This document shows positions 2,655-40,292 of a stretch of 64,000 bases of DNA, piece after piece. The notes under the pieces were generated by a model. It did not search any database. It saw only the letters and a list, made by a program, of their open reading frames with translations, and was not told where the DNA came from. Positions within the stretch are counted from its first letter, which is position 1, and each line of letters starts with the position of its first letter. Made by a program: the position numbers and the translations under genes. Source of the stretch: a virus (lineage: Duplodnaviria; Caudoviricetes). The stretch is taken from positions 3,410 to 67,409 of IMG/VR virus record IMGVR_UViG_2690315746_000005, one strand, 5' to 3'.

Positions 2655-4634
2655 TCAGTCGGGGCGTGCCAGCGGTAGGTCCATGGACGCGGCGATCGCC
2701 ACGTCTCGAACCCAGATCCGCTCGCTCGAGAGGAGGAAGGTCTCGCCGGCCCAGGCCAGCAGCAGCGTCCGGGCGATGACGCCCATGATCGCCTCGGCCG
2801 ACGCAGCGGGCACCATGTTGCCGATGCGCTCGCGCCAGGCACTGTCCGAGGACCCGGCCATCACGAGCGGCTGTGGGTCCTCGGGGTCGACGTAGCTCTG
2901 AAGCGCGGCGAGCTCGTAAGTGGTGAAGGGCCGGTGCCAGGTGCCATCGAGCGCGCGGATCATCGCGACGAGGCGCTCGTCCGCAGCCGGCAGCGTGTCC
3001 GTTTTCGGCTCCTCATCCGAGGACGAAAAACGGGACACGCCCCGCGGGTCCGCGACCGACCACCGGCCGTTGTCGTGCTGCCCCGAGCCGGTCACCGCGC
3101 CGCTCGGATCGTCCCAGGCCGTGACGCCGTAGTGCCCGCCGGTCTGGTAGACCTCACGGCCGCCGCGGGCGAAGTCGGGGCGCGGGTCAGCGACGCAGAG
3201 AGCGCCCGAACCGACGCGATCGGCGCCGGTGACGGTGCCGGCCGGCGCGTCGTAGCGGTGCACCTTGAGCTTGTTCCGGTGCGCGCTGTCGGCCCAGCCG
3301 GTGCGGGGGTCCGCCAGCGCGAACGCCCCCTGACCGGTGGTCGAGGCGCCGATCACGGTCCCGGCCGCCTCGCCGTAGCCGGTCACCCGGTACTTGCCGG
3401 CGCCGCCGAACCCGGCCGCCGCCCGCGGATCGGCCACGGCGAGCCCGCCGCCGGGCCCGCCCGGGCCGGCAACCGCCGCCGAAGGGCCGCCCCACGGCAC
3501 GATCCGGTAGACGTTGTTGAACCGCGGCTTGCCCTGCAGGCGCGGATCGGCGACCGAGAACGTGCCCTGCCCGGGCGACCTCTGGCCGGTGACGACCCCC
3601 GAGGGCTCGTCCCAGGCCCGGACGCCCATCTGCGCGAAGGTGTGCTCGTAGCCGGGTCGCGGGTCGGCGACCGCGAAGGTGCCGTTGGTCGGCGCGCTGC
3701 GCCCCGTGACCGTGCCGGACGTGTCCTGCCACCGCTGCACGCCCAGCACGCCAGCATGCCATCCCGCCTCGGGCGCGATCCCGTAATCCGCCAGCTCGCC
3801 GCCCTCGACGCGCAGCCGGTTCAGCGAGCGCCAGTCCGAACCCGCCTCGACGAAGGCCAGCCGCACCCAGGTCTTCCACTGGAGCGACGGCACCCGGTGC
3901 ATCGGCCCGGCCGACAGGTCGCCCGGCAGCGGCAGCTTGCCCAGGATCTCGCCGACGCCGCGCAGGCGCCGCTTCGGCGGCTCGTAGAGGAACGGCGGCA
4001 CCTTCACTGCGTGACGCGCCACCAGGAGGAACCGCTTCCGGCTCTGCCCGAGCCCGCCGAGTTCGCCGCAGTCGTGGGTGGTCTCGGCGAACACGTAGCC
4101 GTAGGCCGCCAGCAGGGCCTCGATCTGGTCGAGCAGCCACCGGCCGCGCGTTGCGATCCGGGGCACGTTCTCGAACAGCAGGAATTCCGGCGGGTCGTCC
4201 TTCCACGCCTCGAGGGTGAGCCACACCGCCCGGAGCGTCAGCCCGTTGAGCGCCTGGTAGCGGGCGGTGCCGCTGATCTTGTCCGAGAGCAGGCCCGAGA
4301 ACCCCTTGCAGGGCGTCGACATGAAGACGACGTGCGGGCGCTCGCCGCCGGCCGCCCGGCGGAAGTCGTCGGGCACGGCCTCGCGCCAGCCGGCCGGCGG
4401 CAGGCGACCGTGGAACGCCTCGTACTGCTCGCGGGTGAAGAGGTCGATCACGGTCCCGCGTGCGCCCGCGACCCGGTCGAAGTCCTCGATCCCGGCCGGG
4501 TCGACATCGACGCCGCCAATGCAGCGCGGCACCGCAGTGGCGATCCCGACCCGGGCCTGCCCGCGGTTAAAGCCCATGGCGCCGCCGCCGGAGCCGCTGC
4601 AGACGTGGAAGTGACGGATTTCCTGGCGGATCAC
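2655..4634 (-). CDS. DNA cytosine-5 methyltransferase with six internal ADPR repeats
   Basis: SGSGGG SAM motif, STPCKGFS catalytic PC, FENV, QSRKR, C-terminal RIGNMV. Confidence 0.9.
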   Translation of the reverse strand: MIRQEIRHFHVCSGSGGGAMGFNRGQARVGIATAVPRCIGGVDVDPAGIEDFDRVAGARGTVIDLFTREQYEAFHGRLPPAGWREAVPDDFRRAAGGERPHVVFMSTPCKGFSGLLSDKISGTARYQALNGLTLRAVWLTLEAWKDDPPEFLLFENVPRIATRGRWLLDQIEALLAAYGYVFAETTHDCGELGGLGQSRKRFLLVARHAVKVPPFLYEPPKRRLRGVGEILGKLPLPGDLSAGPMHRVPSLQWKTWVRLAFVEAGSDWRSLNRLRVEGGELADYGIAPEAGWHAGVLGVQRWQDTSGTVTGRSAPTNGTFAVADPRPGYEHTFAQMGVRAWDEPSGVVTGQRSPGQGTFSVADPRLQGKPRFNNVYRIVPWGGPSAAVAGPGGPGGGLAVADPRAAAGFGGAGKYRVTGYGEAAGTVIGASTTGQGAFALADPRTGWADSAHRNKLKVHRYDAPAGTVTGADRVGSGALCVADPRPDFARGGREVYQTGGHYGVTAWDDPSGAVTGSGQHDNGRWSVADPRGVSRFSSSDEEPKTDTLPAADERLVAMIRALDGTWHRPFTTYELAALQSYVDPEDPQPLVMAGSSDSAWRERIGNMVPAASAEAIMGVIARTLLLAWAGETFLLSSERIWVRDVAIAASMDLPLARPD

Positions 4635-4677: not shown

Positions 4678-5997
4678 TCACGTCAGCAGCGGCTGCACCG
4701 AGCCGTCCGGGTAGACGGCATCCAGCGGCACATCGCCGGTCGGCTCGTCGCCGGCCCACTTGTCGGGCCAGGTCCCGGCGGCGATCAGCGCGCGGATGCG
4801 CGCCTCCTCCTCGGTGTTCAGGATGTCGACGGGCGGCCAGCCACCGGCGGTCGCCGCGGCGTTCACCTCGGCCTGGATGCCAAGGATCTCCTCGAGCACG
4901 TCGAGGCGCACTGGCAGCGTGATTGGGCCGAGTCGCTGCGGGTTCTTGGCCGTCTTCCCGTTCTTCAGGATCTCGGCGCCGGGCTTGCGCAGCCGGTTCG
5001 CCGGCAGGCGCAGGCGGCGGTAGATCTCGCGCAGCCGCTTCAGCGGAGCGAGGTAGGACCAGGACGGGTGCCGGATGATCTTGTCGAGCGCCTTGTCCTT
5101 ACTCGCGAGCGGGCAGCACAGGCAGCCGGTCCGCGCCGCCAGTTCCTCAGCCTCGTCGCCGCCATAGGCGTCGGCCACCATCGCGGTCGACCAGCCACCG
5201 TACTGATCGGCCGGCGCGTAGATCCGCAGCCAGTCCCACACGTGGCAGACCCGCCAGTGCAGGAGCGGCGCCAGGGTGAAGATGCGCCCACGGACGCCCT
5301 TCGCCTCCGGTACCGCCAGCTGGTACCAGCCCTGCCCGCACTCGGCGCCGTCGCGCCCGCACGACATCTCGATCCGCCGGTCACGCATCGCGCTCTCGCC
5401 CTGGCGAACCCCGGTGATCATCAGCACCGTGTCGCGAGTCTCGGGCGCCGGCTCCTCCGGGCCGTCGGCGAGCACCGGCCCGCCGTTGTGGCCGATCAGC
5501 TGCTCGGCCATCGCCTCGGCGAGGTCCGGGTCCTCCCGGCCGTCGAGGTCGGCGGCGATCGCGGCCGCCATCGGGTCGACCTTGATCTGCCGGGTGCACC
5601 AGCGGAGCGTGTTGTTGTTCGGAGGCGGCACGCCACGTCCGAGAATGTAGACGAGGAACCGCTTGTCGAGCGGCGCGGTCACCACCCGGACCCGGATCCA
5701 GGGGAAGCGCGCGAGCTGACGCATCGTCTCGGCCGCGGCGATCGCGAGCGGCACGAGTTCCATGCGCGTGTCGGCATAGTAGACCGTCAGCGTCTCGGGC
5801 CGGGGCAGCTGGCCGCTCTCGATCAGGTGGATGAGGAGCGTCAGGGTGGCGGTCGAGTCCTTCCCGCCGGACCAGGCGACAGTCCAGTGCCGGTGCAGCG
5901 GGCCGTAGGCGCGGAGCGAAGCGAGGGTGAGGTCCAGGGCCTCGCTGTAGACGAGCCGGTCGGCGCCAGCGGCGAAGAGGTCGAGGGCTGCTGCCAT
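4678..5997 (-). CDS. PAPS-reductase-fold (DndC-like) protein
   Basis: AWSGGKDS PP-loop, RWCTRQIK, TGVRQGES..R, RTGCLCCP; ATG at 5997 coupled to upstream stop. Confidence 0.85.
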   Translation of the reverse strand: MAAALDLFAAGADRLVYSEALDLTLASLRAYGPLHRHWTVAWSGGKDSTATLTLLIHLIESGQLPRPETLTVYYADTRMELVPLAIAAAETMRQLARFPWIRVRVVTAPLDKRFLVYILGRGVPPPNNNTLRWCTRQIKVDPMAAAIAADLDGREDPDLAEAMAEQLIGHNGGPVLADGPEEPAPETRDTVLMITGVRQGESAMRDRRIEMSCGRDGAECGQGWYQLAVPEAKGVRGRIFTLAPLLHWRVCHVWDWLRIYAPADQYGGWSTAMVADAYGGDEAEELAARTGCLCCPLASKDKALDKIIRHPSWSYLAPLKRLREIYRRLRLPANRLRKPGAEILKNGKTAKNPQRLGPITLPVRLDVLEEILGIQAEVNAAATAGGWPPVDILNTEEEARIRALIAAGTWPDKWAGDEPTGDVPLDAVYPDGSVQPLLT

Positions 5998-6719
5998 CAC
6001 GCCCGCCCTCCCGTCGTAAGCCGCGGCGGCGCATCGATGTTCGCGTATGCGACGCCGAAGCTGATGGCCGCGACCCACGGGTTGGCCGCCCAGGACTCCG
6101 GCCCGTGAATGGTCTTCCAGAGGTCGGCGAAGGCGTGCCGGGCGGAGTCGACGAAGCGCGTGCCGCCGAAGCCGGCCGGCGGTGCCCAGAACGGCGATCC
6201 ATCCGGTCGCGTCCCGTTCGAGACGCCCTCGGCGATCGCATCCGCCTCGCTGATGCCCTGGAGCCGTTCGACGCGGACCTCGGTCACCGTGAGGGTCAGG
6301 CGTGAGGCCCACCGCGGCATGTGGATGGACGGCACCTTGCGCCCGCGACAGGGCTGCTTGGCCGTGCTGCCGTAGTGGTTCAGGGCGACCCAGCGATCCG
6401 CGGCCTCGCGGCTGTTCTCGATCGGCAGCCATGCCTCGTCGGCGAGGTAGCGGATACCGTCCTGGCCGGTGGCGAGCTCGTCGGCCCGGACGTTCTCGCG
6501 GACCCAGAGTCGATCGTTGGCCGCGTAGTGCAAGCGAAGCCGCTCCACAGGCACCTCAAGCCGCCGTGCGATGCCGCCGAGCGCCTGGCCCGCATCAACG
6601 GTCGCGTCGGCGATCGTCGTGCCGGCCCGCGGCTTCAGGATCCGGCGCGTCTGCGTCTTGGTGCCGGCGATCAGGGCGCAGACCATCGATGCGCTGAAGA
6701 TAATTTGGCGATCAGCCAC
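5997..6719 (-). CDS. Conserved phage protein, ASCH/PUA-like
   Basis: IIFSASMVCALIAGTKTQTRR, LWVRE, PSIHMPRWASRLTL..VRVERLQ.ISE.DAIAEG, W.ANPWV. Confidence 0.8.
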   Translation of the reverse strand: MADRQIIFSASMVCALIAGTKTQTRRILKPRAGTTIADATVDAGQALGGIARRLEVPVERLRLHYAANDRLWVRENVRADELATGQDGIRYLADEAWLPIENSREAADRWVALNHYGSTAKQPCRGRKVPSIHMPRWASRLTLTVTEVRVERLQGISEADAIAEGVSNGTRPDGSPFWAPPAGFGGTRFVDSARHAFADLWKTIHGPESWAANPWVAAISFGVAYANIDAPPRLTTGGRA

Positions 6720-7149
6720 GGCATTCGTCTCCAACCTGATCGATATCGGGGAAGTCCGCAGCTTTCATCTCAGCGACCAGCGCGTCGTAATCGACTGGCG
6801 TGGCTCCGCTGATCTTCAGGGCCTGGGCCCATTCCGCATCGCTCATGGTCTCAGGCCGGCCGCACCACCTGACCGAGTCCATCAGCCTGCCGAGCAGCGT
6901 GCTCTCGCTCCACTCGGGCTCCTCGCCGCCGCTCATGCCGCCCGTCATGGGCGTGCCCTTGAGGGGGTGGGAGTTGCAGCCGCAGTAGGGCCGAAGGTCA
7001 CCGGCGCCGTGCGTGCAGCGGATGACGAACTCGTGGTGGTTCACGCCTCGCTCGGCGAGGAACACGTCGGCCGGGTCGAGTCCGTAGTGCTTCAGCAGGA
7101 TCGGTTGGGCCTGCTTGGACTTCTTCTTGAGGGTGCGGAGGGTGAGCAT
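6712..7149 (-). CDS. Hypothetical phage protein
   Basis: Translationally coupled ORF in the early operon. Confidence 0.6.
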   Translation of the reverse strand: MLTLRTLKKKSKQAQPILLKHYGLDPADVFLAERGVNHHEFVIRCTHGAGDLRPYCGCNSHPLKGTPMTGGMSGGEEPEWSESTLLGRLMDSVRWCGRPETMSDAEWAQALKISGATPVDYDALVAEMKAADFPDIDQVGDECRG

Positions 7150-28548: not shown

Positions 28549-29046
28549 GTGGGCAAGCGTACCGCTCCGACACCACCGCCGCCGGCCGAACCGAAGCGGG
28601 GAGGGCGCAAGCCCTACGCGCCGACGCCGAAGGATCGATCGACCGTCACGGCCATGACGTCCTACGGCATCCCGCAGGACGACATCGCCCGGGTGCTCAA
28701 GATCAGCCCCACCACCCTGCGGCTGCACTTCCGCTACGAGCTCGACGTCGGCGCCACGCAGGCGAACGTCATGGTGGCGCAGTCACTGTTCCAGAAGGCG
28801 ACTGGCAGCCACCCGCAGGCGGTCACCGCCGCGATTTTCTGGCTCAAGACCCGGGCCCGCTGGAAGGAGCCGCCGCGCGAGGTCAGCGGCCCCAATGGTG
28901 GTCCGATCCCGACCGCCACCGTCGACCTGACCAAGGCCTCCCGCGAGCAGCTCGATGCGCTTGAATCCCTCTTCGGTCACCTTGCCGGCGAACCCGGCGG
29001 CGATGCTGAGGTTGATCCGGGCGGAGAAGGCGAAGCGGGAGCGTGA
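28549..29046 (+). CDS. terS: Terminase small subunit
   Basis: HTH GIPQDDIARVLKISPTTLRLHF, VTAAIFWLKTRARWKE, EVSGPNGGPI; precedes TerL. Confidence 0.85.
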   Translation: MGKRTAPTPPPPAEPKRGGRKPYAPTPKDRSTVTAMTSYGIPQDDIARVLKISPTTLRLHFRYELDVGATQANVMVAQSLFQKATGSHPQAVTAAIFWLKTRARWKEPPREVSGPNGGPIPTATVDLTKASREQLDALESLFGHLAGEPGGDAEVDPGGEGEAGA

Positions 29047-30493
29047 AGCCGAGGCCGAGCGGGTCGCCCGCGACGCCGAGAGGATCCGGGCCCGGTGCCA
29101 GACCCTCGCCGGCTTCGTCCGCGAGGCGTGGCACGTCTTGGAGCCGAACACGCCGCTCGTGTGGAACTGGCACCTCGACGCGATCTGCGCTCATCTCGAA
29201 GCGGTCTCTTACGGGCGGATCAACCGCCTGCTCATCAACGTTCCGCCGGGCTCGTCGAAGTCGCTCCTGACCTCGGTCCTGTGGCAGGCATGGGAGTGGG
29301 GACCGCTCGGGCGCCGCTCGCTCCGGTACCTGACCACCGCCTTCAACGACCAGCCGGTGACCCGCGATACCCGCAAGTGCCGCGACCTCATCCTGTCGGA
29401 TTGGTACCAGCAGCTCTGGCCCGAGGTACGGCTGGTCCGTGCGGGCGAAACCAGCTTCGCGAACAGCAGCACCGGCACCCGCGAGGGTGTTCCCTTCGGC
29501 TCGCTGACTTCGCAGCGCGGCGACCGGCTCATCATAGACGACCCGCACAGCGTCGAGACCGCCGAGAGCGCCGCCGACCGGGCGCGCACCACCCGCAAGT
29601 TCCGCGAGGGCGCGATCAACCGCCTCAACGATCAGGAGCGCAGCGCGATTGTGGTGGTGATGCAGCGCCTGCACGAGGACGACGTCTCGGGCACCATCAT
29701 TAAGCTCGGGATGGGCTTCACCCACCTGATGCTGCCGATGGAGTTCGAGGCGGATCGCGCCTGCCGCACGCCGCTCTTCGCCGACCCGCGGACCCAGGAC
29801 GGCGAATTGCTCGACCCCGTCCGCTTCCCGCCCTCGGCGGTCGAAGGGCTCCGGCTGATGGGCAGCTACGCCTATGCCGGGCAGTACCAGCAGCGGCCGG
29901 CGCCCCGCGAAGGTGGCCTGTTTCAGCGCCACTGGTTCGGCATCGTCCGGGCGGCGCCCGCCGGCTGTGAATGGGTGCGGGCCTGGGACTTGGCCGCCAG
30001 CGAGGCGAAGGCCGGCAAGACCTCGGGCCAGCCGGCCTATACCGCCGGCCTGCTGCTGGGCCGGTCGCGCGACGGGCAGCAGTTCTACGTCGCGGACGTG
30101 CGTCGCGATCGCGTCTCGGCCGGCAAGCTCGAGGAGATGCTGATCAACACGGCGCGCCAGGACGCCCAGGCGATCGGCGACGTGCGGATCTCGCTCCCGC
30201 AGGACCCGGGCGGCGCCGGCAAGTTCCAGGCCTCCTACCTCGTTGGGAAGCTGATCGGCTTCAACGCGCGGGCGACCCCGGAGACCGGCGACAAGGAGAC
30301 CCGGGCCCTTCCGGTCTCAGCCCAGGCCGAGGCCGGCAACATCACGCTCGTCAAGGGTGCGTGGAACGAGGCCTTCCTCGACGAGGTGTCGTCGTTCCCG
30401 AATGGCTCCTTCAAGGACCAGGTCGACGCCCTCTCGCGCGCCTTCCAGGAACTCGCCGGCCCGTCTTACGGCATGCTCGGGGTACTCGACTGA
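28955..30493 (+). CDS. terL: Terminase large subunit
   Basis: LLINVPPGSSKS, LIIDDPH, VVMQRLHEDD, YQQRP, RAWDLAAS, FPNGSFKDQVDA; start may be 29003. Confidence 0.95.
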   Translation: MRLNPSSVTLPANPAAMLRLIRAEKAKREREAEAERVARDAERIRARCQTLAGFVREAWHVLEPNTPLVWNWHLDAICAHLEAVSYGRINRLLINVPPGSSKSLLTSVLWQAWEWGPLGRRSLRYLTTAFNDQPVTRDTRKCRDLILSDWYQQLWPEVRLVRAGETSFANSSTGTREGVPFGSLTSQRGDRLIIDDPHSVETAESAADRARTTRKFREGAINRLNDQERSAIVVVMQRLHEDDVSGTIIKLGMGFTHLMLPMEFEADRACRTPLFADPRTQDGELLDPVRFPPSAVEGLRLMGSYAYAGQYQQRPAPREGGLFQRHWFGIVRAAPAGCEWVRAWDLAASEAKAGKTSGQPAYTAGLLLGRSRDGQQFYVADVRRDRVSAGKLEEMLINTARQDAQAIGDVRISLPQDPGGAGKFQASYLVGKLIGFNARATPETGDKETRALPVSAQAEAGNITLVKGAWNEAFLDEVSSFPNGSFKDQVDALSRAFQELAGPSYGMLGVLD

Positions 30494-33432
30494 TGTGGCT
30501 GGTGGATTCCTTTCGCAACCTCATGTCCGGCCTGGGGACGGCCAAGGACAAGACGGTCGCGGACCAGCACGTCTTCGTGCCGCGCTCGCTCGTCGAGTGC
30601 CGGGCTGCCTATCGGGGGAACTGGATCGCCCGCAAGGTCGTGGACATCGTGCCCTTCGACATGCTGCGCGAGTGGCGCGCCTGGCAGGCGACCCCCAAGG
30701 AGGTCGAGACGCTCGAGGCGGCCGAGAAGGCGCTGGGGGTGCAGGGCAAGCTCCTCGATGGGCTCAAGCGGGCCCGCCTCGAAGGCGGCGCGGCCATCCT
30801 GATCGGCGACGGCGGCGACGCGACCGCCGAACTGCTGCTGAACCGCCTCGCGCAGGGCGGCATCAAGTGGCTGCACGTCTTCGGGCGTGAGGAGATCGTC
30901 CCCGAGGAGCCGATCCTGGACCCGGATAGCCCGTGGTTCGGAGAGCCGAGGGCCTGGACGCTCAACAGCCGGCGCGATGGCGCCGTTCGCATCCATCCGT
31001 CGCGCGTCATCCGCCTCGTCGGCGCGCCGATCCTCGACACCGTGTCGGCGCAGGCCGAGCAGGGCTGGGGCGACAGCGTGCTGCAGGCGCTGTTCGCGGC
31101 GCTCGACCAGGCCACGAGCTCGCCGGCCTACCTCGCCGCGATGCTGCCGGAAGCCAAGCAGGACATCATCAGCGTGCCCGGCCTCTCGGGGTATCTCAAG
31201 ACCGCCGCGAGCACCGCGGAACTGACGAAGCGGTTCCAGTACGCCGCCCAGATGAAGAGCATGTTCGGGATGCTCCTCCTAGAGGGCGACGGGAAGTCGC
31301 CGACGGGGGAGACGTTCCAGCAGAAGCAATTGAGCTTTGACGGCCTCGCGGACGTCGTGAAGCTCATGCTCATGATCGCCTCCGCAGCGGCGGACATCCC
31401 GGCAACGCGCCTCCTCAGCCAGTCGCCGACGGGGATGAACGCGACCGGGGATTCGGACACGCGAAACTACTACGACCGCTGCGCCGCCGGGCAGAAGGTC
31501 GAGCTGACGCCGGCCATCGCCCGGCTCGACGAGGTGCTGATCTGGAACGCGCTCGGCCACCGGCCGGCCGCGGCCTGGTACGACTGGCGCCCCCTGTACC
31601 AGCCGACCCAGCGCGAGAAGGCCGACACTTTCAAGACCCTCGCCGACGGGGTGAAGGTGCTGGCCGACGCCGGCCTCGCGCCGCTCGAGGTCCTGGGCCG
31701 GGGCGCGAAGGGCATGGTGATCGAGACCGGCCTCTTCCCGGGGATCGAAGCCGCCTACACCAAGCACGGCAATGCGCCGCTGACCGATGTGCCCGTCGAT
31801 CAGGTCGACCAGTACGACCCTTACGGCAACCCCGCTGAGGGCTACACGGGCACCGACGGCGCCGGCAACGTCGTGCCCTTCCCGGGGCGGGCCGCCCTAG
31901 GCGACGCCACCCCGCGCACGCTCTACGTCTCGCGCAAGCTGAAGAACGGCGACGACGTGCTCGCCTGGGCGCGGGCCCAAGGGTTCGCCGACCTCATGCC
32001 GGCAGGCGAGCTACACGTCACGATCGCCTACAGCCGGACCCCGATCGACTGGATGAAGGTCGGGCAGACCTGGAACGGCGAGGAACTTAAGGTCTCGGCC
32101 GGCGGGCCGCGCCTAGTCGAGCGCTTCGGCGAGGCCGTCGTCCTGCTGTTCGCGAGCGACGAACTGCGCTGGCGGCATCAGGAGATCCGCGAGGCCGGCG
32201 CCTCGTGGGATCACCCCGAGTACCAGCCGCACGTCACGTTCACCTGGAACGCTGGCGACGTCGATCTGGCCGAGGTCGAGCCGTACAACGGACCGCTCCT
32301 GTTCGGGCCCGAGCTGTTCGAGCCGGTCGACGAGGATTGGCGGGCGGGGCTCGACGACGCCGCCAGGGTCGACCCGGACCAGGACGGCGACGACGACCTG
32401 TCCGACCCGCTCGACGAGGAGGACGAGGACGAGATCGCGGCCGTCACCGAGGACGAGCTCGTGGCCCTGTTCGGCGAGGAGTACCGGGCGGCGGCCGAGG
32501 AGGATCGGCGGATGCGGGATGCCTTCCCGGACCTAGTCGTCTTCCTCGACGCCCGGCGGCGGCCGCATCACGGCGGCGGTGCGTCGCGGCGCCCGTTCGA
32601 CGAAAGCCAGGTCCGCCGGGTCGGCGGCCGCTTCGCCCCGAAGGGCGGCGCGGGCGAACGCCCCGCGGCCCGCCCGCCGCGGCAGACCGTCGGCGCCCGG
32701 CATCTCGAGGAGCACAACGTCGGCGGCGAGCACGGCATCGTCGTGAACAGCGCTCGGGTCAGGAAGTACCGCGGCCATGCCACGGTCGAGTCGTTCGTCG
32801 CCGCGCACCCGAAAGGGCGGGCGCACGCGATGCGGGTCCTCGCCGCGGATCACAAGGCGGGGCGGATCGGGTTCGCAGGGACGCCGACGCCCGCCGTGGC
32901 GTCGGAGGCCCCTCCCGCGCGGGAGCAGGGGGCCAAGCCGGCGGCCCGCCAGCCAGCGGCGCAGAAGCGGGCCGCGCCCGAGGACCCGATCGCGGCCCTG
33001 GAGCGAGCGCTTGCCGCGCCGCCGCCCGCTGCGACCGCGACGCCTAAGCCCGCGGTCGTGCATAAGGCGGTTCAGCCCGTCGCACATGCGCCCCGGCCGG
33101 CAGCGGGGCATCACGAGGCCGCGCCGACACCGCGGGAAGATCGGGTTCTCGCCGCCGTCCGGGAGGCGACGCGAGAGTCAGGTTCGATGAGCCCTCTCGT
33201 CGGCTTGCAGAACGTGCGCAACCGCCTGCCCGACCTGTCGCGGGCCGAGATCGACGAGGCCTTCTCGCAGCTCCAGTCGAAGGGCCTCGTCAACATGATG
33301 GGGCTCGGCGACCCGAAGCACCCCGCGGTCCGCCGCGGCGAGGGAACCGACTTCGGTGGCGGGCGGCGAGACGAGATCGCGCTGACCATGGCCGGCACCG
33401 AGCACCTGCGCAGCAAGGCGAAGAAGGGGTGA
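30493..33432 (+). CDS. DUF1073-type portal fused to Acb1-like 2H phosphodiesterase and further C-terminal domains (979 aa)
   Basis: Portal: YRGNWIARKVVDIVPFDMLREW, IHPSRV, AADIPATRLLSQSPTGMNATGDSD..NYYD. 2H domain ~31906-32343: LHVTIAYSR and YQPHVTF. Confidence 0.9.
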   Translation: MWLVDSFRNLMSGLGTAKDKTVADQHVFVPRSLVECRAAYRGNWIARKVVDIVPFDMLREWRAWQATPKEVETLEAAEKALGVQGKLLDGLKRARLEGGAAILIGDGGDATAELLLNRLAQGGIKWLHVFGREEIVPEEPILDPDSPWFGEPRAWTLNSRRDGAVRIHPSRVIRLVGAPILDTVSAQAEQGWGDSVLQALFAALDQATSSPAYLAAMLPEAKQDIISVPGLSGYLKTAASTAELTKRFQYAAQMKSMFGMLLLEGDGKSPTGETFQQKQLSFDGLADVVKLMLMIASAAADIPATRLLSQSPTGMNATGDSDTRNYYDRCAAGQKVELTPAIARLDEVLIWNALGHRPAAAWYDWRPLYQPTQREKADTFKTLADGVKVLADAGLAPLEVLGRGAKGMVIETGLFPGIEAAYTKHGNAPLTDVPVDQVDQYDPYGNPAEGYTGTDGAGNVVPFPGRAALGDATPRTLYVSRKLKNGDDVLAWARAQGFADLMPAGELHVTIAYSRTPIDWMKVGQTWNGEELKVSAGGPRLVERFGEAVVLLFASDELRWRHQEIREAGASWDHPEYQPHVTFTWNAGDVDLAEVEPYNGPLLFGPELFEPVDEDWRAGLDDAARVDPDQDGDDDLSDPLDEEDEDEIAAVTEDELVALFGEEYRAAAEEDRRMRDAFPDLVVFLDARRRPHHGGGASRRPFDESQVRRVGGRFAPKGGAGERPAARPPRQTVGARHLEEHNVGGEHGIVVNSARVRKYRGHATVESFVAAHPKGRAHAMRVLAADHKAGRIGFAGTPTPAVASEAPPAREQGAKPAARQPAAQKRAAPEDPIAALERALAAPPPAATATPKPAVVHKAVQPVAHAPRPAAGHHEAAPTPREDRVLAAVREATRESGSMSPLVGLQNVRNRLPDLSRAEIDEAFSQLQSKGLVNMMGLGDPKHPAVRRGEGTDFGGGRRDEIALTMAGTEHLRSKAKKG

Positions 33433-33434
33433 CC

Positions 33435-33692
33435 ATGTCCGACCAGCATCACGGCCTGCCCGTGGCCGGCTACCGGCCGCAGAACGATGCCAACGTGGCG
33501 CTCGTGAACGAGCACAAGGCGATGGAGGAGCGCATCCTGCGCCACCTTGACCAGCTGCGCGGCACTGGCGTGGACGAACGCTGGCTGTCGATCGGCCGGA
33601 CCGCGATCGAGCAGGGCTTCATGGCCGTGAACCGGTCCGTGTTCCAGCCGGCGCGGGTGCCGCTGCCGGAGGATGGCGGGCCCGCCGTCTGA
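33435..33692 (+). CDS. acb2: Acb2-like cyclic-nucleotide sponge (anti-CBASS)
   Basis: GYRPQ...VNEHK..EE...[24 protein letters not shown] matches the remembered Acb2 pattern GYR..N..K...RWLAIGKT.IQ.G.MA..R.IAQP. Confidence 0.78.
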
Positions 33693-33742
33693 ACGCATCT
33701 TTCGATCCGAAGAGGCCCCACCCTCCCACGACAGGACGGACG

Positions 33743-34225
33743 ATGATCCGCAGCCCCCGCATCCTCGCGGGCGCCGCCGTGGCGCTCGTCCTCGTCGCCG
33801 GTGCCGCTGGCGCCAGGCAGTACCGGAACGCCGGCGGCCAGACCGAGTCGCTCGGCGTGGTCATCGAGACGAACGATCAGCCCGTCTCGAACACCAACCC
33901 GCTCGGCGTCATGACCATGCCGTTCATCCGCTCGACGCCGGACCCGATCATCTTCGACGGGGTCACGACCACTCCGAAGCAGTTCGTGGTCAGCAAGCCG
34001 CCGACCGCCACCACCTACCGATTCGTCAACCCCTGCGACGTGGACGTGCGGATTCGGCGGGTCGGCAGCATGGCCGAGACCGTCACGCTGACCACAGGCA
34101 TCCGCTACCTTGCCCGGACCTCCGAGGTGGTCGGGACCAGCAACCCGAGCTTCGTCTCGATCATGGCGGTGTCGCCGCCCTCAGCGCCGTGCGCGCCCGA
34201 GCTGCTGTATGGGAACGGGTCATGA
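33743..34225 (+). CDS. Signal-peptide hypothetical protein
   Basis: [24 protein letters not shown]; beta-rich mature part. Confidence 0.7.
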
Positions 34226-35124
34226 GGGCGGCGGCGCTCCTCGCCCTTGCCGCCGCGCTGGCGCCTGCGCCGCTCGCCGCCCGCGGTACGGGCAGCCCGG
34301 GCATGGGGCCGGCGGGGCCGGCCGGAGAGCAGGGGCCGGCGGGCCCGAAAGGCGAGCCCGGAGCGAAGGGGGAAAAGGGTGAGCAAGGATCGCGAGGCCC
34401 GGCCGGCGCGGCCGGCAACCAAGGCCATTCCGGCGCGGCCGGCTCCGCGGGTCCGCAAGGCGATGTCGGCCCTGCTGGTGCAGCTGGCCCGCCTGGACCC
34501 ACCGGCGCCGCAGGCGCACAGGGCAGCGCTGGACCTGCAGGCGCTACTGGACCCGCAGGAGCCCAAGGCGCCAAGGGCGAAACCGGCGCGACGGGCGCCC
34601 AAGGCCAAGCCGGCGCCACAGGACAAGCCGGCCCGCAAGGGCTGACCGGTCCGGCAGGAGCCACCGGGGCTCAGGGTTCGAAGGGGGAAACCGGTCCCGC
34701 CGGATCACCCGGGCCAACAGGCGCACAGGGTCCGGCGGGTTCACAGGGTCCGAAAGGCGAGACCGGGGCGACTGGCTCTGTTGGCGCCGCGGGACCGCAA
34801 GGCCCGCAGGGTCTCACCGGGGCGACCGGGGCGCAAGGCCCGACCGGACCGAGGGCCTCCACCTTCGTCTGCAACGCCACGATCACCGAGACCATGCTGG
34901 CGGCGGTCTCTTCCGGCATCCGCGAGCGGGCCGGCGTGACCTGCATGGGCCTGCTCTCCACCGATATCCTCGAGGTGTACCCGACCACCCTCCCGAGCGG
35001 CTACGCGGTCCACCACGCGATCCCGACCGCGGCGAACACCTTCCGGGCGACCATCTCGCAGCCCGGCATCGCCCTCGGCGCCACCTACTCGATCCCGGTC
35101 GCGGTCTACGCCGTCAACCGCTGA
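34222..35124 (+). CDS. Signal-peptide collagen-like protein
   Basis: [20 protein letters not shown], about 61 uninterrupted Gly-X-Y triplets (34306-34854), about 90 aa C-terminal beta domain. Confidence 0.85.
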
Positions 35125-35131
35125 GGCCAGC

Positions 35132-36355
35132 ATGAACTTCTTCGACAGGATGAGCCTCGGCCAGGCGGCCGAGATCGCGAACGCGCGCGAGACGCGCAGC
35201 GGCGCGCTGATCGTCAACGCCCGAGCCGCCCGCGGCGGCAACATCCAGGATTACCTCGGCGCCGAGATCGGCCGCCCCGAGCTCGGCCTCGTGCGGGTCT
35301 ACCGCGACACCGACGAGGTCTTCCGCGCCGATTCCCTGCGGACCTTCGGGCACAAGGCCGTCACCCTCGACCACCCGACTGCGCCGGTCACGCCCGGCAC
35401 CTGGCGTGGGGTCGCCCGCGGCCACGTCGGCGAGGAGGTCGTGCGCGACGGCGAGTTCGTGCGGATCCCGATGCTGATCGCCGACCAAGAGGCCATCAGC
35501 GCGGTCCGTGCCGGCCGGCGCGAGCTCTCCGTCGGCTACACCTGCGACCTCGACTTCACCCCCGGCACCACCGCGGACGGGCGCGCCTACGACGCCCGCC
35601 AGGTCGGCATCGTCGTCGACCACGTCGCCATCGTGGCGCGCGGCCGCGCCGGCCCCGACTGCCGCATCGGCGACGAGCGCCCCGCCGACGGCAAGACCAT
35701 GCGGGCGCTCGACCAGCTCACCCCGCCCCAGCCCCAGCAGAGGACCACCACCCCCATGACCGACCGCACCATCGTGGTCGACGGCCACTCCGTCGTCGTC
35801 AGCGACGCCGCCGCAATCGCCATTGGCGGTCTGCAGCGGCAGAACCAGACCCTCGTCGCCGACAACCTGCAGCTGACCGCCGACCTCAACACGGCCCGCT
35901 CCGGCCACAGCGCGGCGATCACCGCCAAGGACGCCGAGATCGCCACCGCCCAGCGGACCATCGAGGCCCGGGACGGCGAGATCGTCGCGCTCAAGAAGCA
36001 GCTCACCGACGCCGCCTCGCCGGCCGTCCTCGACGCCGCCCGGGCCGCCCGCGACACCGTGATGAAGGTCGCGCACCGCCTCCTCGGCGACTCCTACGAC
36101 GCCGCCGGCAAGACCGACGCGCAGGTCCGCCGCGAGGTGGTCGCGAAGGCGATGCCGGAGGAGGCGAAGACCATGTCGGACGCCGCGATCGACGGCGCCT
36201 TCCTGGCCGTCGCCGCCGCCGCGCCCCGCGACCAGCTGCGCGACGCGATCTCGGGCGGCATCGTCCCGGCCGGCGGCACCTCCGTGCAGGACAAGGCCTA
36301 CGGCGAGATGACGAACTCCTACACCGAGGCCTGGAAGCAGCGCCCGGCGGCCTGA
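35132..36355 (+). CDS. DUF2213 prohead protease/scaffold
   Basis: AARGGNIQDY, VTLDHP, RELSVGYTCD, DHVAIV.RGRAG..CRIGD; coiled-coil C-terminal half. Confidence 0.88.
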   Translation: MNFFDRMSLGQAAEIANARETRSGALIVNARAARGGNIQDYLGAEIGRPELGLVRVYRDTDEVFRADSLRTFGHKAVTLDHPTAPVTPGTWRGVARGHVGEEVVRDGEFVRIPMLIADQEAISAVRAGRRELSVGYTCDLDFTPGTTADGRAYDARQVGIVVDHVAIVARGRAGPDCRIGDERPADGKTMRALDQLTPPQPQQRTTTPMTDRTIVVDGHSVVVSDAAAIAIGGLQRQNQTLVADNLQLTADLNTARSGHSAAITAKDAEIATAQRTIEARDGEIVALKKQLTDAASPAVLDAARAARDTVMKVAHRLLGDSYDAAGKTDAQVRREVVAKAMPEEAKTMSDAAIDGAFLAVAAAAPRDQLRDAISGGIVPAGGTSVQDKAYGEMTNSYTEAWKQRPAA

Positions 36356-36425
36356 CCGAGGCCACTCCATCGCGCCCCGCCTCGGGGCGTCCTCACCCGC
36401 CACAGATCCAAGGGAGCCGGCCCTC

Positions 36426-36872
36426 ATGCCGTCCGTTCAGACCTCCTACCCGGGCACCCAGGCCGCCGCCTACGCCGGCATGCAGGCCTCGATGTCGCCC
36501 GTCGACACCATCTCGCGCGTCATCGAAACCGCCGGCGGCATCGCCCCGGGCGCGCCCGCCTTCCAGGGCAGCACCGACCAGGCCTGCGCCACGACCGGCG
36601 CGGCGTTCCTCGGCGTCGTGCTCGTCGACCACTTCGCCCGCCCGACCGCCGCCGGCTCGGACAACATCCTGAAGGGCGACACCGTGACCATCATGCAGAA
36701 GGGCACCGTCTGGGTGACGGTCTCGGGCGCCGTGACCGCCGAGGCGCCGGCCTACCGGACCGCCGGCGGCGCCTACACGGCCACCGCCACGAACAACACC
36801 CCCGTCGGCGGTGTGTTCGAGACCTCGGCCTCCGACGGCGGCCTGGCGATCCTCAAGCTCAACCTGCCCTGA
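36426..36872 (+). CDS. Head decoration/cement protein
   Basis: Between scaffold and capsid; IMQKGTVWV motif. Confidence 0.75.
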   Translation: MPSVQTSYPGTQAAAYAGMQASMSPVDTISRVIETAGGIAPGAPAFQGSTDQACATTGAAFLGVVLVDHFARPTAAGSDNILKGDTVTIMQKGTVWVTVSGAVTAEAPAYRTAGGAYTATATNNTPVGGVFETSASDGGLAILKLNLP

Positions 36873-36926
36873 TCCGGTCCGCCGGATCGCCCCCTCACCG
36901 ACAGCAGACGAAGGAACCCCCTGACC

Positions 36927-37877
36927 ATGCGTGGCCAGCAGCTTCTCCACGACGCGCCGCGAGCCCTGGCCTTCCTGGTCAGCCAGCAGGCGTTCATCGA
37001 GCCGACCGTCTACCGGACGCAGTACCCGGCGATCCGCTACCAGCGGCTGATCCCCGTCGACACGGCCGCGCCGGAGTGGATCCCGGCGGTGACCTACTTT
37101 TCCATGGACCAGGTCGGCGCCGCCAGGTGGGTGACCGGCAACGCCCAGGACGTGCCGCGGGCCGACGTCAAGCGCAACATCTTCGAGACGACCGTTTCGA
37201 TGGCCGGCATCGGCTACGGCTACGACCTCGAGGAGCTCGGCAAGGCCCAGCTGCTCGGCATGTCCCTCGACGCCGACAAGGCGGCGGCCGCGCGGCAGGC
37301 CTCCGAGGAGTTCATCGACAAGACCGCGCTCTTCGGCGACACCGCGAAGGGCTACGACGGCCTGGTCAACAACCCGGCGGTGACCGCGGGCTCGGCCCCG
37401 CCCACCGGGGCGGCCGGCAGCACGCAGTTCAAGGACAAGACCGCGGAGCAGGTCACCGCGGACGTCAACGGCGCCATCACCGGCGTCTTCGTCGGCTCGA
37501 ACACCGTCGAGCTCGCCGACACGCTGCTGCTGCCCTACCAGATCATGATCGACCTCAGCATCCGGCGCATCGATCCGATGAGCCAGATGACGGTGCTCGA
37601 CTGGATCCGCCGCAACAACATCTTCACGATGGAGACCGGCCAGCCGCTCGACATCATCGGCGTGCGCGGCCTCGAGACGGCCGGCGCCGGCGGCACCGCC
37701 CGCCTGATGGCCTACCGGCGCGATCCGACCGTCCTCAAGCTGTGGCTGCCGATGCCGTTCCGGTTCTTCCCGGCCTGGCAGACCGGCCCGTGGCGCTTCG
37801 ACGTCCCCGGCGCCTTCCGCTTCGGCGGCACCGACATCCGCCGCCCGGGGGCCTGCCGCTACCTCGACGGCCTGTAG
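36927..37877 (+). CDS. Major capsid protein (DUF2184 family)
   Basis: FLVSQ...IEP.VY, GYGYDLEEL, ALFGD...YDGLVNNP, ends RYLDGL. Confidence 0.9.
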   Translation: MRGQQLLHDAPRALAFLVSQQAFIEPTVYRTQYPAIRYQRLIPVDTAAPEWIPAVTYFSMDQVGAARWVTGNAQDVPRADVKRNIFETTVSMAGIGYGYDLEELGKAQLLGMSLDADKAAAARQASEEFIDKTALFGDTAKGYDGLVNNPAVTAGSAPPTGAAGSTQFKDKTAEQVTADVNGAITGVFVGSNTVELADTLLLPYQIMIDLSIRRIDPMSQMTVLDWIRRNNIFTMETGQPLDIIGVRGLETAGAGGTARLMAYRRDPTVLKLWLPMPFRFFPAWQTGPWRFDVPGAFRFGGTDIRRPGACRYLDGL

Positions 37878-37960
37878 GGGCGTCCGCGCCCCTTCCACCC
37901 TTCCCGCAGATCGGCGCGTCGCGCCGCCGGGCGCCGCAGGCGGCCCGAGGAGCATCCATC

Positions 37961-38527
37961 ATGGTCGACATCACCAACCGGGCGGCCGGCCCGCGCGTCT
38001 TGTACATCAAGGGCGGCAACGGCGAGCCGGTCGCCCGGACCCTGGCCCGCGGCGAGACCGCCGACCTTGACCTGCACCGCGGGCCGGACAAGGACCCGGT
38101 CCTCAAGGGCTATCTGGACGCGGGCGAGATCATCCTGGGCCCGGCGCCGGCCGAGCCGGGCCAGCCGTCCCAGGAGCAGCTGATGGCCGCCTGGCAGGAG
38201 CGCCAGCGGATGGCCGAGGCCTTCGCGCTGCTCCACGAGCGCGTGCAGGACCTGGAGGCCGAGAACCGTCGCCTGCGCGAGGCCGCGGCCGGCTCGAACC
38301 AGGCGCCGGGCGGCCAGCAGGGCTCGGACCCGACCGGCGGCCAGGGCGACTCGCAGGGTGGCGGCGAGACCACCAAGCCGGCTGCCCCGAACTTCGACAC
38401 CATGTCGGACGACGACCTGAAGGCCTTCCTCGTCGCCCGCGAGGTCACGCCCGGCGCGTGGCAGCGCAAGCGGCTGCTCACCGAGGCCGAGGCCGTCAAG
38501 GACGTGAAGCCCGGCGAGGCGGCCTGA
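37961..38527 (+). CDS. Hypothetical virion-module protein
   Basis: MVDITNRAAGPR...; GAGGAG RBS; C-terminal FDTMSDDDLKAFL (HeH-like). Confidence 0.7.
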   Translation: MVDITNRAAGPRVLYIKGGNGEPVARTLARGETADLDLHRGPDKDPVLKGYLDAGEIILGPAPAEPGQPSQEQLMAAWQERQRMAEAFALLHERVQDLEAENRRLREAAAGSNQAPGGQQGSDPTGGQGDSQGGGETTKPAAPNFDTMSDDDLKAFLVAREVTPGAWQRKRLLTEAEAVKDVKPGEAA

Positions 38528-38922: not shown

Positions 38923-39294
38923 ATGGGCCTGCTCGACGGCGGCCTCGCCGGGATCTTCGGCGCGGCGTTCTCCGGGATCTACCTGCCCGGCACCCTGCAT
39001 CGCGCCACGCTCACCCGCGGCGAGGACAAGCGCGTCACCGGGACCGGCTTCGACGACGTGCCGATGCGCTACCAGCCGAACGCGATCAGCGCCGAGGCCC
39101 GCGCCCGCGCTGGCATCCCGGCCGACGTCGTCCTGCTGCTGATCCTGACGGCCGGCCTCGGCCCGGGGGTGACGACCGAGGACGAGGTCACGATCGACAC
39201 CGGCCGTTACCGCATCCTCTCGGCCTCGCTCGACCCGGCCCGCAGCCACTACGACGTGCGGGCCGTGCCTACCGATCCGCCCGAGACGCCCTGA
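38923..39294 (+). CDS. Head-closure protein
   Basis: Position; ends YRILSASLDPA..HY. Confidence 0.7.
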   Translation: MGLLDGGLAGIFGAAFSGIYLPGTLHRATLTRGEDKRVTGTGFDDVPMRYQPNAISAEARARAGIPADVVLLLILTAGLGPGVTTEDEVTIDTGRYRILSASLDPARSHYDVRAVPTDPPETP

Positions 39295-40292
39295 TGCCGG
39301 TCTTCCGAGGGCTCGGCACCCTGCTCGACGCCTGGGCTCCGAAGGTCGCGCAGGCGTTCCAGCGGGTCGTTGCCGACATCAAGGGGCTGGTCCAGCCCAG
39401 CCACGTCGCCGCCCGACTCGTGGCGGTCGGCCCGGACGCCGCTGCGACCGCGGTGCCGCTTCAGCCCGCCTTGTTCCGCCCGCTCGACCAAGCGATCGAG
39501 CAGGCGTTCGAGGGCGGCGGCAAGGCTACGATCGACGCCCTGCCGGCCGCCCGCGGCCCGGACGGGGGTCGGATCCGGACCATTTTCGACATCCGCAGCC
39601 CTGCCGCCGAGGCTTGGCTGCGCGACCACTCCTCGACCCTGGTGCGGGAGATCATCGACGACCAGCGCGCCGCGATCCGAGCGCGTCTCGTCGCCGGCAT
39701 GGAGGCGGGCCGCAACCCGCGCGACGTCGCGCTCGACCTCGTCGGCCGGGTCGATCGCGCGACCGGGCGGCGGGTGGGCGGCATCATCGGCCTGACGGCC
39801 TACCAGGAGGCGATCGTCAGGAACTACGCCGCCGAACTCGCCCGCGCGGATGCGGCGGCTCTGGACCGGCAGCTGCGCGATCCTCGGTACGACGGCGCCC
39901 TGAAGCGTGCGATTGCCGAGGGCAAGCCGCTCGCCGCGGACCAGATCACCAGGATGGTCGCCGCCTACGAGAGCCGGATGCTCCGGCACCGGGGCGAGAC
40001 GATCGCCAAGACCGAGACCACCCCGGCGCTCTACGAGGCCCGCATCCAGGCGCTGGAACAGGCGAGCGCGTCGGGCCGGATCGACATCGGCGAGGTCCGC
40101 AAGCGCTGGCGCGACTCGGGCGGCCCGAACGTCCGGCACACCCACCGCCTTCTGAACGGGCAGACGGTCCCCGCCCGGGCGTCCTTCGTGAGTTCGAGCG
40201 GCGCCATCCTGCGCTATCCGGCCGACCCGCGGGCGCCCGCTGCCGAGCGGGTCAACTGCGAATGCGACATCGAGATCCTGTTCGGTAGGTGA
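39294..40292 (+). CDS. MuF/gp7-like minor head protein
   Basis: RGETIAKTET, KRW.......VRHTH..LNGQ, LRYPADP......VNCEC. Confidence 0.85.
   Translation: MPVFRGLGTLLDAWAPKVAQAFQRVVADIKGLVQPSHVAARLVAVGPDAAATAVPLQPALFRPLDQAIEQAFEGGGKATIDALPAARGPDGGRIRTIFDIRSPAAEAWLRDHSSTLVREIIDDQRAAIRARLVAGMEAGRNPRDVALDLVGRVDRATGRRVGGIIGLTAYQEAIVRNYAAELARADAAALDRQLRDPRYDGALKRAIAEGKPLAADQITRMVAAYESRMLRHRGETIAKTETTPALYEARIQALEQASASGRIDIGEVRKRWRDSGGPNVRHTHRLLNGQTVPARASFVSSSGAILRYPADPRAPAAERVNCECDIEILFGR

Follow-up and report, generated by a model that had tools for sequence, protein, structure and literature searches.

An Acb1 domain carried by a phage portal protein and an adjoining Acb2-family gene: a probable counter-defense pair in a late head operon

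The portal gene of a Caudoviricetes phage, found in a 64,000-nucleotide stretch of DNA (hereafter the window; positions 3,410 to 67,409 of IMG/VR record IMGVR_UViG_2690315746_000005), continues in frame into an Acb1-type 2H phosphodiesterase domain and is followed directly by a gene of the Acb2 family. Both families are associated with evasion of the cyclic-oligonucleotide-based antiphage signaling system (CBASS). The two genes probably represent a pair of known counter-defense functions, a portal-borne Acb1 and a coupled Acb2, that a temperate phage carries among its late head genes. The analysis directly shows that both parts belong to these families, that their catalytic and ligand residues are intact, how the genes are ordered, and that they recur in relatives. 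The provirus record from which the window comes is 67,409 bases long, has about 70% G+C, and is covered for the most part by the window; the source phage is temperate, a prophage of a Methylobacterium-like host. All features described below lie on the + strand.

The portal-Acb1 open reading frame (ORF; 30493..33432) is open from an ATG at 30493 to a TGA at 33430-33432 and encodes 979 aa, arranged as portal, Acb1, acidic linker, adaptor block, Pro/Ala-rich stretch, and C-terminal domain. Third-position G+C is 0.72-0.98 across all 150-nt windows of this frame and lower outside it, and thus the whole frame, including the part after Acb1, looks coding. The portal domain (residues 37-388; 30601..31656) matches PF06381 with E 2.3e-105 and TIGR01555 with 210 bits (cut-off 196; E 5e-62). 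In a PDB sequence search, the 621-aa Pam3 portal (8HDS) aligns to residues 4-618, Acb1 part included, with E 2.8e-120. Membership in the portal family is borne out by the family-model match together with a terminase gene directly upstream (28955..30493; PF17289 Terminase_6C, E 5e-11), whose stop overlaps the portal ATG by one base.

A programmed frameshift that would make a shorter portal was considered and rejected. Two in-frame CCCGGGG heptamers are present between the portal core and Acb1 (31737-31743 and 31881-31887, at residues 415 and 463), but by a rough estimate of our own about eight X_XXY_YYZ sites are expected by chance at such a composition, so the heptamers are not above chance. 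Read from residue 430, the -1 frame is open for 19 codons before a stop.

The Acb1-type 2H phosphodiesterase domain (residues 475-617; 31915..32343) matches PF23474 with E 6.4e-45 and 152.9 bits (cut-off 27), covering profile positions 1-142 of 144. The crystal structure of Erwinia FBB1 Acb1 (7T26) also matches the domain in the PDB sequence search, with E 5.6e-11. An earlier description of this DNA made without databases (the sequence-only reading) had proposed Acb1 when it saw the portal frame run on into a 2H domain. Every motif that it quoted is found in the translation, its span of 31906-32343 corresponds to residues 472-617, and its identification is upheld by the PF23474 and 7T26 matches and by the aligned HxT motifs.

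The active site of Acb1 is a tetrad of two HxT motifs (H44, T46, H113, and T115), accompanied by the base-stacking aromatics Y12, W74, and F107 and by a closing C-terminal lid, according to the available text of Hobbs et al. (2022; PMC9117128). In the window protein, the first motif is H508-V-T510 (32014..32022), aligned to H-T-T of FBB1 Acb1, and the second is H580-V-T582 (32230..32238), aligned to H-I-T. Both motifs are intact, giving the complete HxT/HxT tetrad of an Acb1, and among 12 diverse fusions that are 46-70% identical to the window protein, H508, T510, and H580 are invariant and T582 is kept in at least 90%. The domain leads straight into the acidic linker at the position where the lid is expected. 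Acb1 cleaves 3'3'-cyclic GMP-AMP (3'3'-cGAMP) and cyclic tri-AMP (cAAA) without a metal, and the window domain is a predicted degrader of cyclic nucleotide signals.

A 2H domain could in principle act on RNA instead of cyclic oligonucleotides, either by repairing ends that bear a 2',3'-cyclic phosphate or by serving as an RNase, and the latter is one of two options that the available text of Iyer et al. (2017; PMC5512222) offers for portal- and MuF-fused 2H domains. Although phrog_755, labeled "RNA ligase", matches the domain at E 2e-22, and weak LigT or 2'-5' RNA ligase matches are found in some relatives (E 5e-5 to 7e-3), the score of the Acb1 model surpasses that of any LigT-type model by 40 orders of magnitude. 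The 979-aa protein itself has no match to LigT or RNA-ligase Pfam families at E<=1. The similarity to the cGAMP-cleaving FBB1 enzyme (E 5.6e-11) is direct, and a sponge gene adjoins the fusion in 6 of 43 genomes of different genera, in addition to the window and a viral locus described below. An RNA substrate is very unlikely in light of this evidence.

The Acb2-family gene (33435..33692) begins with an ATG two bases past the portal stop and encodes 85 aa; an alternative GTG start at 33429 overlaps the portal stop and would give 87 aa. A Shine-Dalgarno-like GAAGGGG (33423..33429) lies within the 3' end of the portal gene, with 5 nt separating it from the ATG, and the arrangement suggests that Acb2 is probably translationally coupled to the portal-Acb1 gene. 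The protein matches PF24729 (Acb2_Tad1_hairpin) with E 2e-17 and 63.6 bits (cut-off 27) over profile positions 1-58 of 58, and this family is found in all 120 Acb2 relatives among the matches listed. In the PDB sequence search, PaMx33 Acb2 (8H2J) matches with E 3e-4. An AlphaFold2 (AF2) model made from 38 aligned sequences has a predicted local distance difference test (pLDDT) score of 82 and long helices at residues 18-41 and 48-70. When this model was compared with the PDB by Foldseek, ranks 1-8 were all Acb2 or Vs.4 structures (8H2X, 8H2J, and 7UQ2; probability 1.00, template modeling score 0.54-0.63, E ~1e-2), and the next match had E 1.8. The two-helix hairpin fold of Acb2 is thus seen in both the model and the structural search.

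The dinucleotide pocket of Acb2 contains Y11 and K26 and the trinucleotide pocket contains R67 and T74, as given in the available text of a preprint (PMC10312549). These correspond in the 8H2J alignment to Y13, K28, R49, and T56 of the 85-aa protein, so all four ligand residues are kept; Y13 and R49 are invariant among the 38 aligned sequences and K28 is present in at least 90%. On this basis, the protein is a predicted sponge of cyclic oligonucleotides. The Acb2 hexamer binds three dinucleotides and two trinucleotides.

It is also conceivable that the 85-aa protein sequesters another signal, of the glyco-cyclic ADP-ribose (gcADPR) type used by Thoeris, in which case the pair would cover two defense systems. 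PF24729 is common to Acb2 and Tad1, and four Acb2 clades inhibit Thoeris according to the available text of a 2025 preprint (10.1101/2025.08.24.671296). Set against this are the conserved residues of both Acb2 nucleotide pockets and the fold comparison, in which Acb2 is matched at probability 1.00 and Tad1 only at E ~2. Sequestration of a Thoeris signal is quite unlikely when these points are taken together. The Acb2 identity that the sequence-only reading had proposed therefore agrees with the family match, the Acb2/Vs.4 fold matches, and the ligand residues.

The pairing of a portal-borne 2H domain with Acb2 is found repeatedly among related loci. Acb2 genes were counted with PF24729 over whole genomes, 43 of which carry a portal-Acb1 locus and 35 a related portal that lacks Acb1. 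A hidden Markov model of our own, built from 121 close relatives of the window Acb2, was too narrow (2 of 80 loci, with no more at E<=50) and was dropped for counting; the genome-wide use of PF24729 gave four more Acb2 genes in the slot between portal and protease than this model. Nine of the 43 portal-Acb1 genomes carry an Acb2 gene somewhere, and in six it lies between portal-Acb1 and the protease (loci L004, L005, L013, L020, L070, and L075). The slot behind Acb1-less portals contains no Acb2 in any of the 35 genomes, one of which has an Acb2 gene outside the slot. The comparison of 6/43 with 0/35 gives a two-sided Fisher p of 0.03. This association is no more than suggestive, since the test takes no account of the relatedness among the genomes.

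In five of the six slot loci, Acb2 overlaps the portal stop or begins at most 170 nt beyond it, and in L013 it lies behind a MuF gene, 1.9 kb downstream. The Acb2 genes of L004 and L070 belong to the lineage of the window gene, and those of the other four loci form a second lineage that is 25-28% identical to it. Given these two lineages, the slot has captured a sponge at least twice. Furthermore, a viral locus (L089) whose portal fusion ends in an ADP-ribosyltransferase (ART) domain has an Acb2 gene of the window lineage about 390 nt downstream. The gap from portal to protease ranges from 9 nt to 4.4 kb across the 80 loci and is 1.7 kb in the window, and thus the slot can be regarded as a variable cargo slot. 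A scan of 72 ORFs in these gaps yielded six matches to PF24729 and 20 to Phage_Mu_F. Among cultured phages, no record was shared between 40 of 70 Acb2 records and the 32 of 33 portal-Acb1 records listed. The literature that was searched, outside of which most subscription journals and supplements fall, contains no statement of an Acb2 gene following a portal-Acb1 gene.

One of the slot loci is incomplete. L070 (positions 5965-7115), which lies on a contig of Methylorubrum suomiense, retains just the final third of the portal (query residues 324-617, in a 300-aa open frame). The Acb1 domain is intact there, the overlapping Acb2 gene is intact as well, and no DUF2213 protease was found downstream. 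This locus may be a prophage remnant that kept the counter-defense pair.

The gene order around the pair provides some hints regarding when it might be made. A 160-aa ORF and a 300-aa ORF with collagen repeats (33743..35124; PF01391, E 3e-30 for the 300-aa protein) separate Acb2 from the head maturation protease (35132..36355; PF09979 DUF2213, E 2e-55; phrog_530, E 4e-88), which forms the downstream border of the variable slot behind the portal. The protease is followed by a cement protein of the Pam3 gp6/E217 gp24 type and then by a PF09950 major capsid protein. No promoter-like or + strand terminator-like site was found in 28955-38500 by a scan that, for promoters, covers the sigma-70 consensus. 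Because the genes overlap or nearly abut and no such site was found in this region, a single late transcript fits the arrangement. Coexpression with the late head genes, as had been proposed by the sequence-only reading, is consistent with this gene arrangement, and the timing itself stays an inference.

A plausible course of events can be proposed from these features, from which we infer enzyme activity, ligand binding, timing, and packaging. Acb1 would degrade immune signals made of cyclic di- and trinucleotides, and Acb2 would use its dinucleotide and trinucleotide pockets to bind the signals that escape Acb1. Synthesis of both would accompany that of the head proteins and come just ahead of the head maturation protease. 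Prohead proteases are described as switching on CBASS CD-NTases late in infection in the available text of a recent preprint (Hobbs and Kranzusch 2026; PMC12991175), and hence the producing cell would be the first place of action. A protease that trips CBASS would likewise provide a rationale for the placement of Acb1 and Acb2 beside it. In the genus of the L004 genome, whose record is titled Methylobacterium carpenticola, 11 of 61 species genomes contain SMODS-type nucleotidyltransferases.

Several observations weigh against this explanation and must be kept in view. The mapping of the Acb1 active site covers the HxT/HxT tetrad, leaving the aromatics and the lid aside. No slot Acb2 is found in 37 of the 43 portal-Acb1 genomes, and therefore the pairing must be optional. 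In the association test, a large share of the loci without Acb1 derive from records with the title Methylobacterium. None of five genomes titled Methylobacterium or Methylorubrum has a SMODS match. An enzyme tethered within the capsid may be unable to reach its substrate. Some Acb2 clades inhibit Thoeris and not CBASS, as stated in the available text of the 2025 preprint (10.1101/2025.08.24.671296), and the available text of Hobbs et al. (2022; PMC9117128) contains no mention of portals.

The portal-Acb1 fusion itself is under selection and widespread. PF06381 and PF23474 occur together in 119 of 120 relatives among the matches listed, out of 557 at E<=1e-10, and Acb1 is fused to the portal in 45 of 80 related loci from species-representative genomes. 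Matches over at least 80% of the fusion are found in 33 cultured-phage records, where the protein is annotated merely as portal or hypothetical; carriers include Pseudomonas phiPSA1, Rhizobium RHEph04-06, Synechococcus phages, Pam3, and Sinorhizobium HMSP1-Susan. Phrog_146, labeled only "portal protein", covers the Acb1 part, and several relatives bear the NCBI name "anti-CBASS protein Acb1 family protein".

Nor is the fusion new, since it is in print, in the PDB, and in NCBI naming. Fusions of 2H domains to MuF or portal proteins, with degradation of defense nucleotides as a suggested role, are described in the available text of Iyer et al. (2017; PMC5512222). A 2022 paper (PMC9503650), in the part that is available, takes such fusions to suggest packaging in the head and injection against SMODS, cyclic-mononucleotide, and CRISPR signaling. 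The guess in the sequence-only reading that portal-Acb1 fusions had already been catalogued was therefore correct, as the NCBI naming, phrog_146, 8HDS, and the two papers attest.

Two relatives deserve separate mention. A Roseovarius metagenome-assembled genome carries two portal-Acb1 loci on one chromosome (L021 and L022), about 47 kb apart and with identical scores and coordinates, which may reflect either duplication of a prophage or a repeat in the assembly. In an 891-aa relative (P0087), the Acb1 domain is located at residues 746-887, with about 350 unassigned residues between it and the portal domain, which is a different insertion point for extra cargo.

Beyond Acb1, the portal frame of the window continues for another 362 residues (618-979), a part that the sequence-only reading did not include. 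An alignment with six long relatives reveals the layout of this extension: an acidic linker (residues 618-665; 32344..32487), a short HPR..GRF-like motif, a conserved adaptor block with invariant columns (approximately residues 700-795; 32590..32877), a Pro/Ala-rich stretch, and a final domain of about 100 aa (residues 877-979; 33121..33429). Conservation of the block is strongest at approximately residues 730-795. Residues 618-979, the block included, have no match to a Pfam or PHROG family, and for residues 620-979 there is no usable Atlas feature match and no Foldseek match with E <0.4 in the PDB or BFVD. In an AF2 model of residues 690-979, pLDDT is 84-96 for residues 730-790 and 75-95 for the three helices of the last domain. 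Atlas structural leads for this last domain point to PadR, HxlR, and MarR, and weak PDB winged-helix matches (all E>=1) agree, so it is possibly a winged-helix domain, though as a lead only.

Relatives of this extension carry other domains at the same place. The final domain is replaced by ART in P0013 and P0014, P0006 carries an added PBECR3 nuclease that is also present in P0030, and P0025 joins a portal to ART with no Acb1. A HMMER search with residues 690-979 matched 23 proteins, most of them through the block only, at their own N-terminus. Of 10 that were scanned, three end in ART, three have weak anthrax-lethal-factor-like peptidase matches, three have no family, and the tenth is fused to a PF04860 portal and also matches a peptidase-like domain faintly. 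Taken with its portal and 2H domains, the window protein is a polyvalent fusion, in which a head-anchoring domain is joined to unrelated biochemistry among the virion genes.

In IMG/VR, the block is a separate gene in 7 of the 8 loci that carry it, and in all five examined of these seven its start adjoins or overlaps the stop of the portal-position gene. The upstream gene is a PF04860 portal in two loci and a DUF4055 protein, which we take to be a portal as well, in three. The gene that follows is MuF in two loci, an S78 prohead protease in one, and a small ORF without a family in two. The acidic motif of the linker (32410-32487) reappears as the extreme C-terminus of stand-alone PF04860 portals that precede a block gene (for example, at approximately 5800-5896 of L088). 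This shared motif suggests that tail, block, and effector travel together, as a single module, from one portal gene to another.

Such an architecture raises the question of whether the main purpose of the fusion is delivery by the virion. In that case, the protease would cut the portal polyprotein, Acb1 and the attached cargo would be stored in the capsid, and both would be injected with the DNA, so that anti-signaling activity precedes any phage gene expression; late action in the producing cell would still be compatible. Portal C-termini face the capsid interior, and consequently each virion would be expected to enclose Acb1 and the 362-aa extension in up to twelve copies. Effector-type domains sit at the same C-terminal position in relatives (ART in P0013, P0014, and P0025; PBECR3 in P0006 and P0030), and the block heads stand-alone proteins whose genes lie directly behind the portal-position gene in the five viral loci examined of seven. 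Packaging and injection of portal- or MuF-fused 2H, PBECR, and ART domains have been predicted in print (available text of PMC5512222 and PMC9503650). These predictions and the effector-type domains of the relatives suggest that the protease may free Acb1 and the cargo and that these may then enter the next cell. No cleavage site is known, however, and CBASS reportedly fires at a late stage, by which time little or none of an injected enzyme would be left undiluted. Virion delivery as the main purpose is a possibility, albeit an unlikely one.

A broader interpretation would treat the portal end and the slot before the protease as a general cargo-loading site. The block, about 100 aa long, is either part of the portal chain or the product of the next gene, with three types of gene upstream of it, and it would mark polymorphic effectors for the capsid: an ADP-ribosyltransferase, a peptidase-like domain, a PBECR nuclease, or, here, a winged-helix-like domain. 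Acb1 would travel in the same chain, the protease would free the pieces, and the virion would inject a kit for anti-signaling and host takeover. The coupled Acb2 would cover the late phase, acting in the producing cell when the same protease trips CBASS. This interpretation is doubtful, and it is offered only tentatively. The explanation that we prefer remains a portal-borne Acb1 with a coupled Acb2 expressed among the late head genes.

Some neighboring genes are of interest in their own right. The 160-aa ORF within 33743-35124 has no Pfam or PHROG family. The best PHROG matches of the 300-aa collagen-repeat protein are tail-fiber families, making it an odd cargo in a head-gene slot. A MuF-like head morphogenesis gene (39294-40292; phrog_3517, E 4e-89; PF04233, E 8e-7) lies behind the capsid genes in the window, and in relatives MuF is the commonest occupant of the slot between portal and protease (20 of 72 gap ORFs).

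There are several reasons why these arrangements matter. A portal family of alphaproteobacterial phages and cyanophages routinely carries an anti-CBASS-type enzyme domain, and on at least two occasions a sponge for the same pathway has been captured alongside it. An active domain would mean that each virion in a large phage group holds a signal-degrading enzyme at the DNA exit, in as many as twelve copies, and the old prediction of virion-delivered counter-defense would become directly testable. The location of the pair, close upstream of the head protease, is in keeping with a recent report that this protease is a CBASS trigger. Likewise, the unmodeled adaptor block provides a handle for finding further head-loaded effectors. 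Regardless, both parts belong to known families, and the locus is a further example rather than a new principle.

Comparison with characterized systems helps to define what is shared and what differs. The window Acb1 resembles the Acb1 proteins of T4 (gene 57B) and FBB1 (7T26/7T27) in its 2H domain of about 145 aa, its HxT/HxT tetrad, and its PF23474 membership, whereas those are free monomeric enzymes and the window Acb1 is a domain inside a 979-aa portal encoded in a late structural operon. Similarly, the 85-aa protein shares with PaMx33 p26 (8H2J/8IXZ) and T4 Vs.4 (7UQ2) a length of about 85-93 aa, the two-helix hairpin, the Y/K and R/T pocket residues, and PF24729, but its identity to the solved Acb2 proteins is only about 25% in the fold alignment, and its gene probably shares translation with the portal-Acb1 gene. 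The Pam3 portal gp3 (8HDS) and the phrog_146 portals belong to the same portal family and have an Acb1 domain in the same place, yet Pam3 gp3 ends after Acb1 at 621 aa, and the window protein has 362 more residues. The 2H domain is not discussed in the Pam3 portal paper.

The polyvalent MuF- and portal-effector fusions of PMC5512222 and PMC9503650 are similar in that a head protein is fused to 2H, with ART or PBECR in relatives. The available text of these papers predicts packaging and a role against nucleotide signaling but does not describe an Acb2 neighbor or the adaptor block. Phage T4 also combines a degrader and a sponge in one phage, and it is said to be broadly CBASS-evasive (available text of PMC10312549). 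None of the text available describes T4 Acb1 and Acb2 as neighbors or as head-operon genes, whereas the window pair is adjacent, probably coupled, and located between portal and protease. Three features seem to be undescribed in the literature searched: the recurrent capture of Acb2 behind portal-Acb1, the slot just before the protease, and the unmodeled block with its polymorphic end domains.

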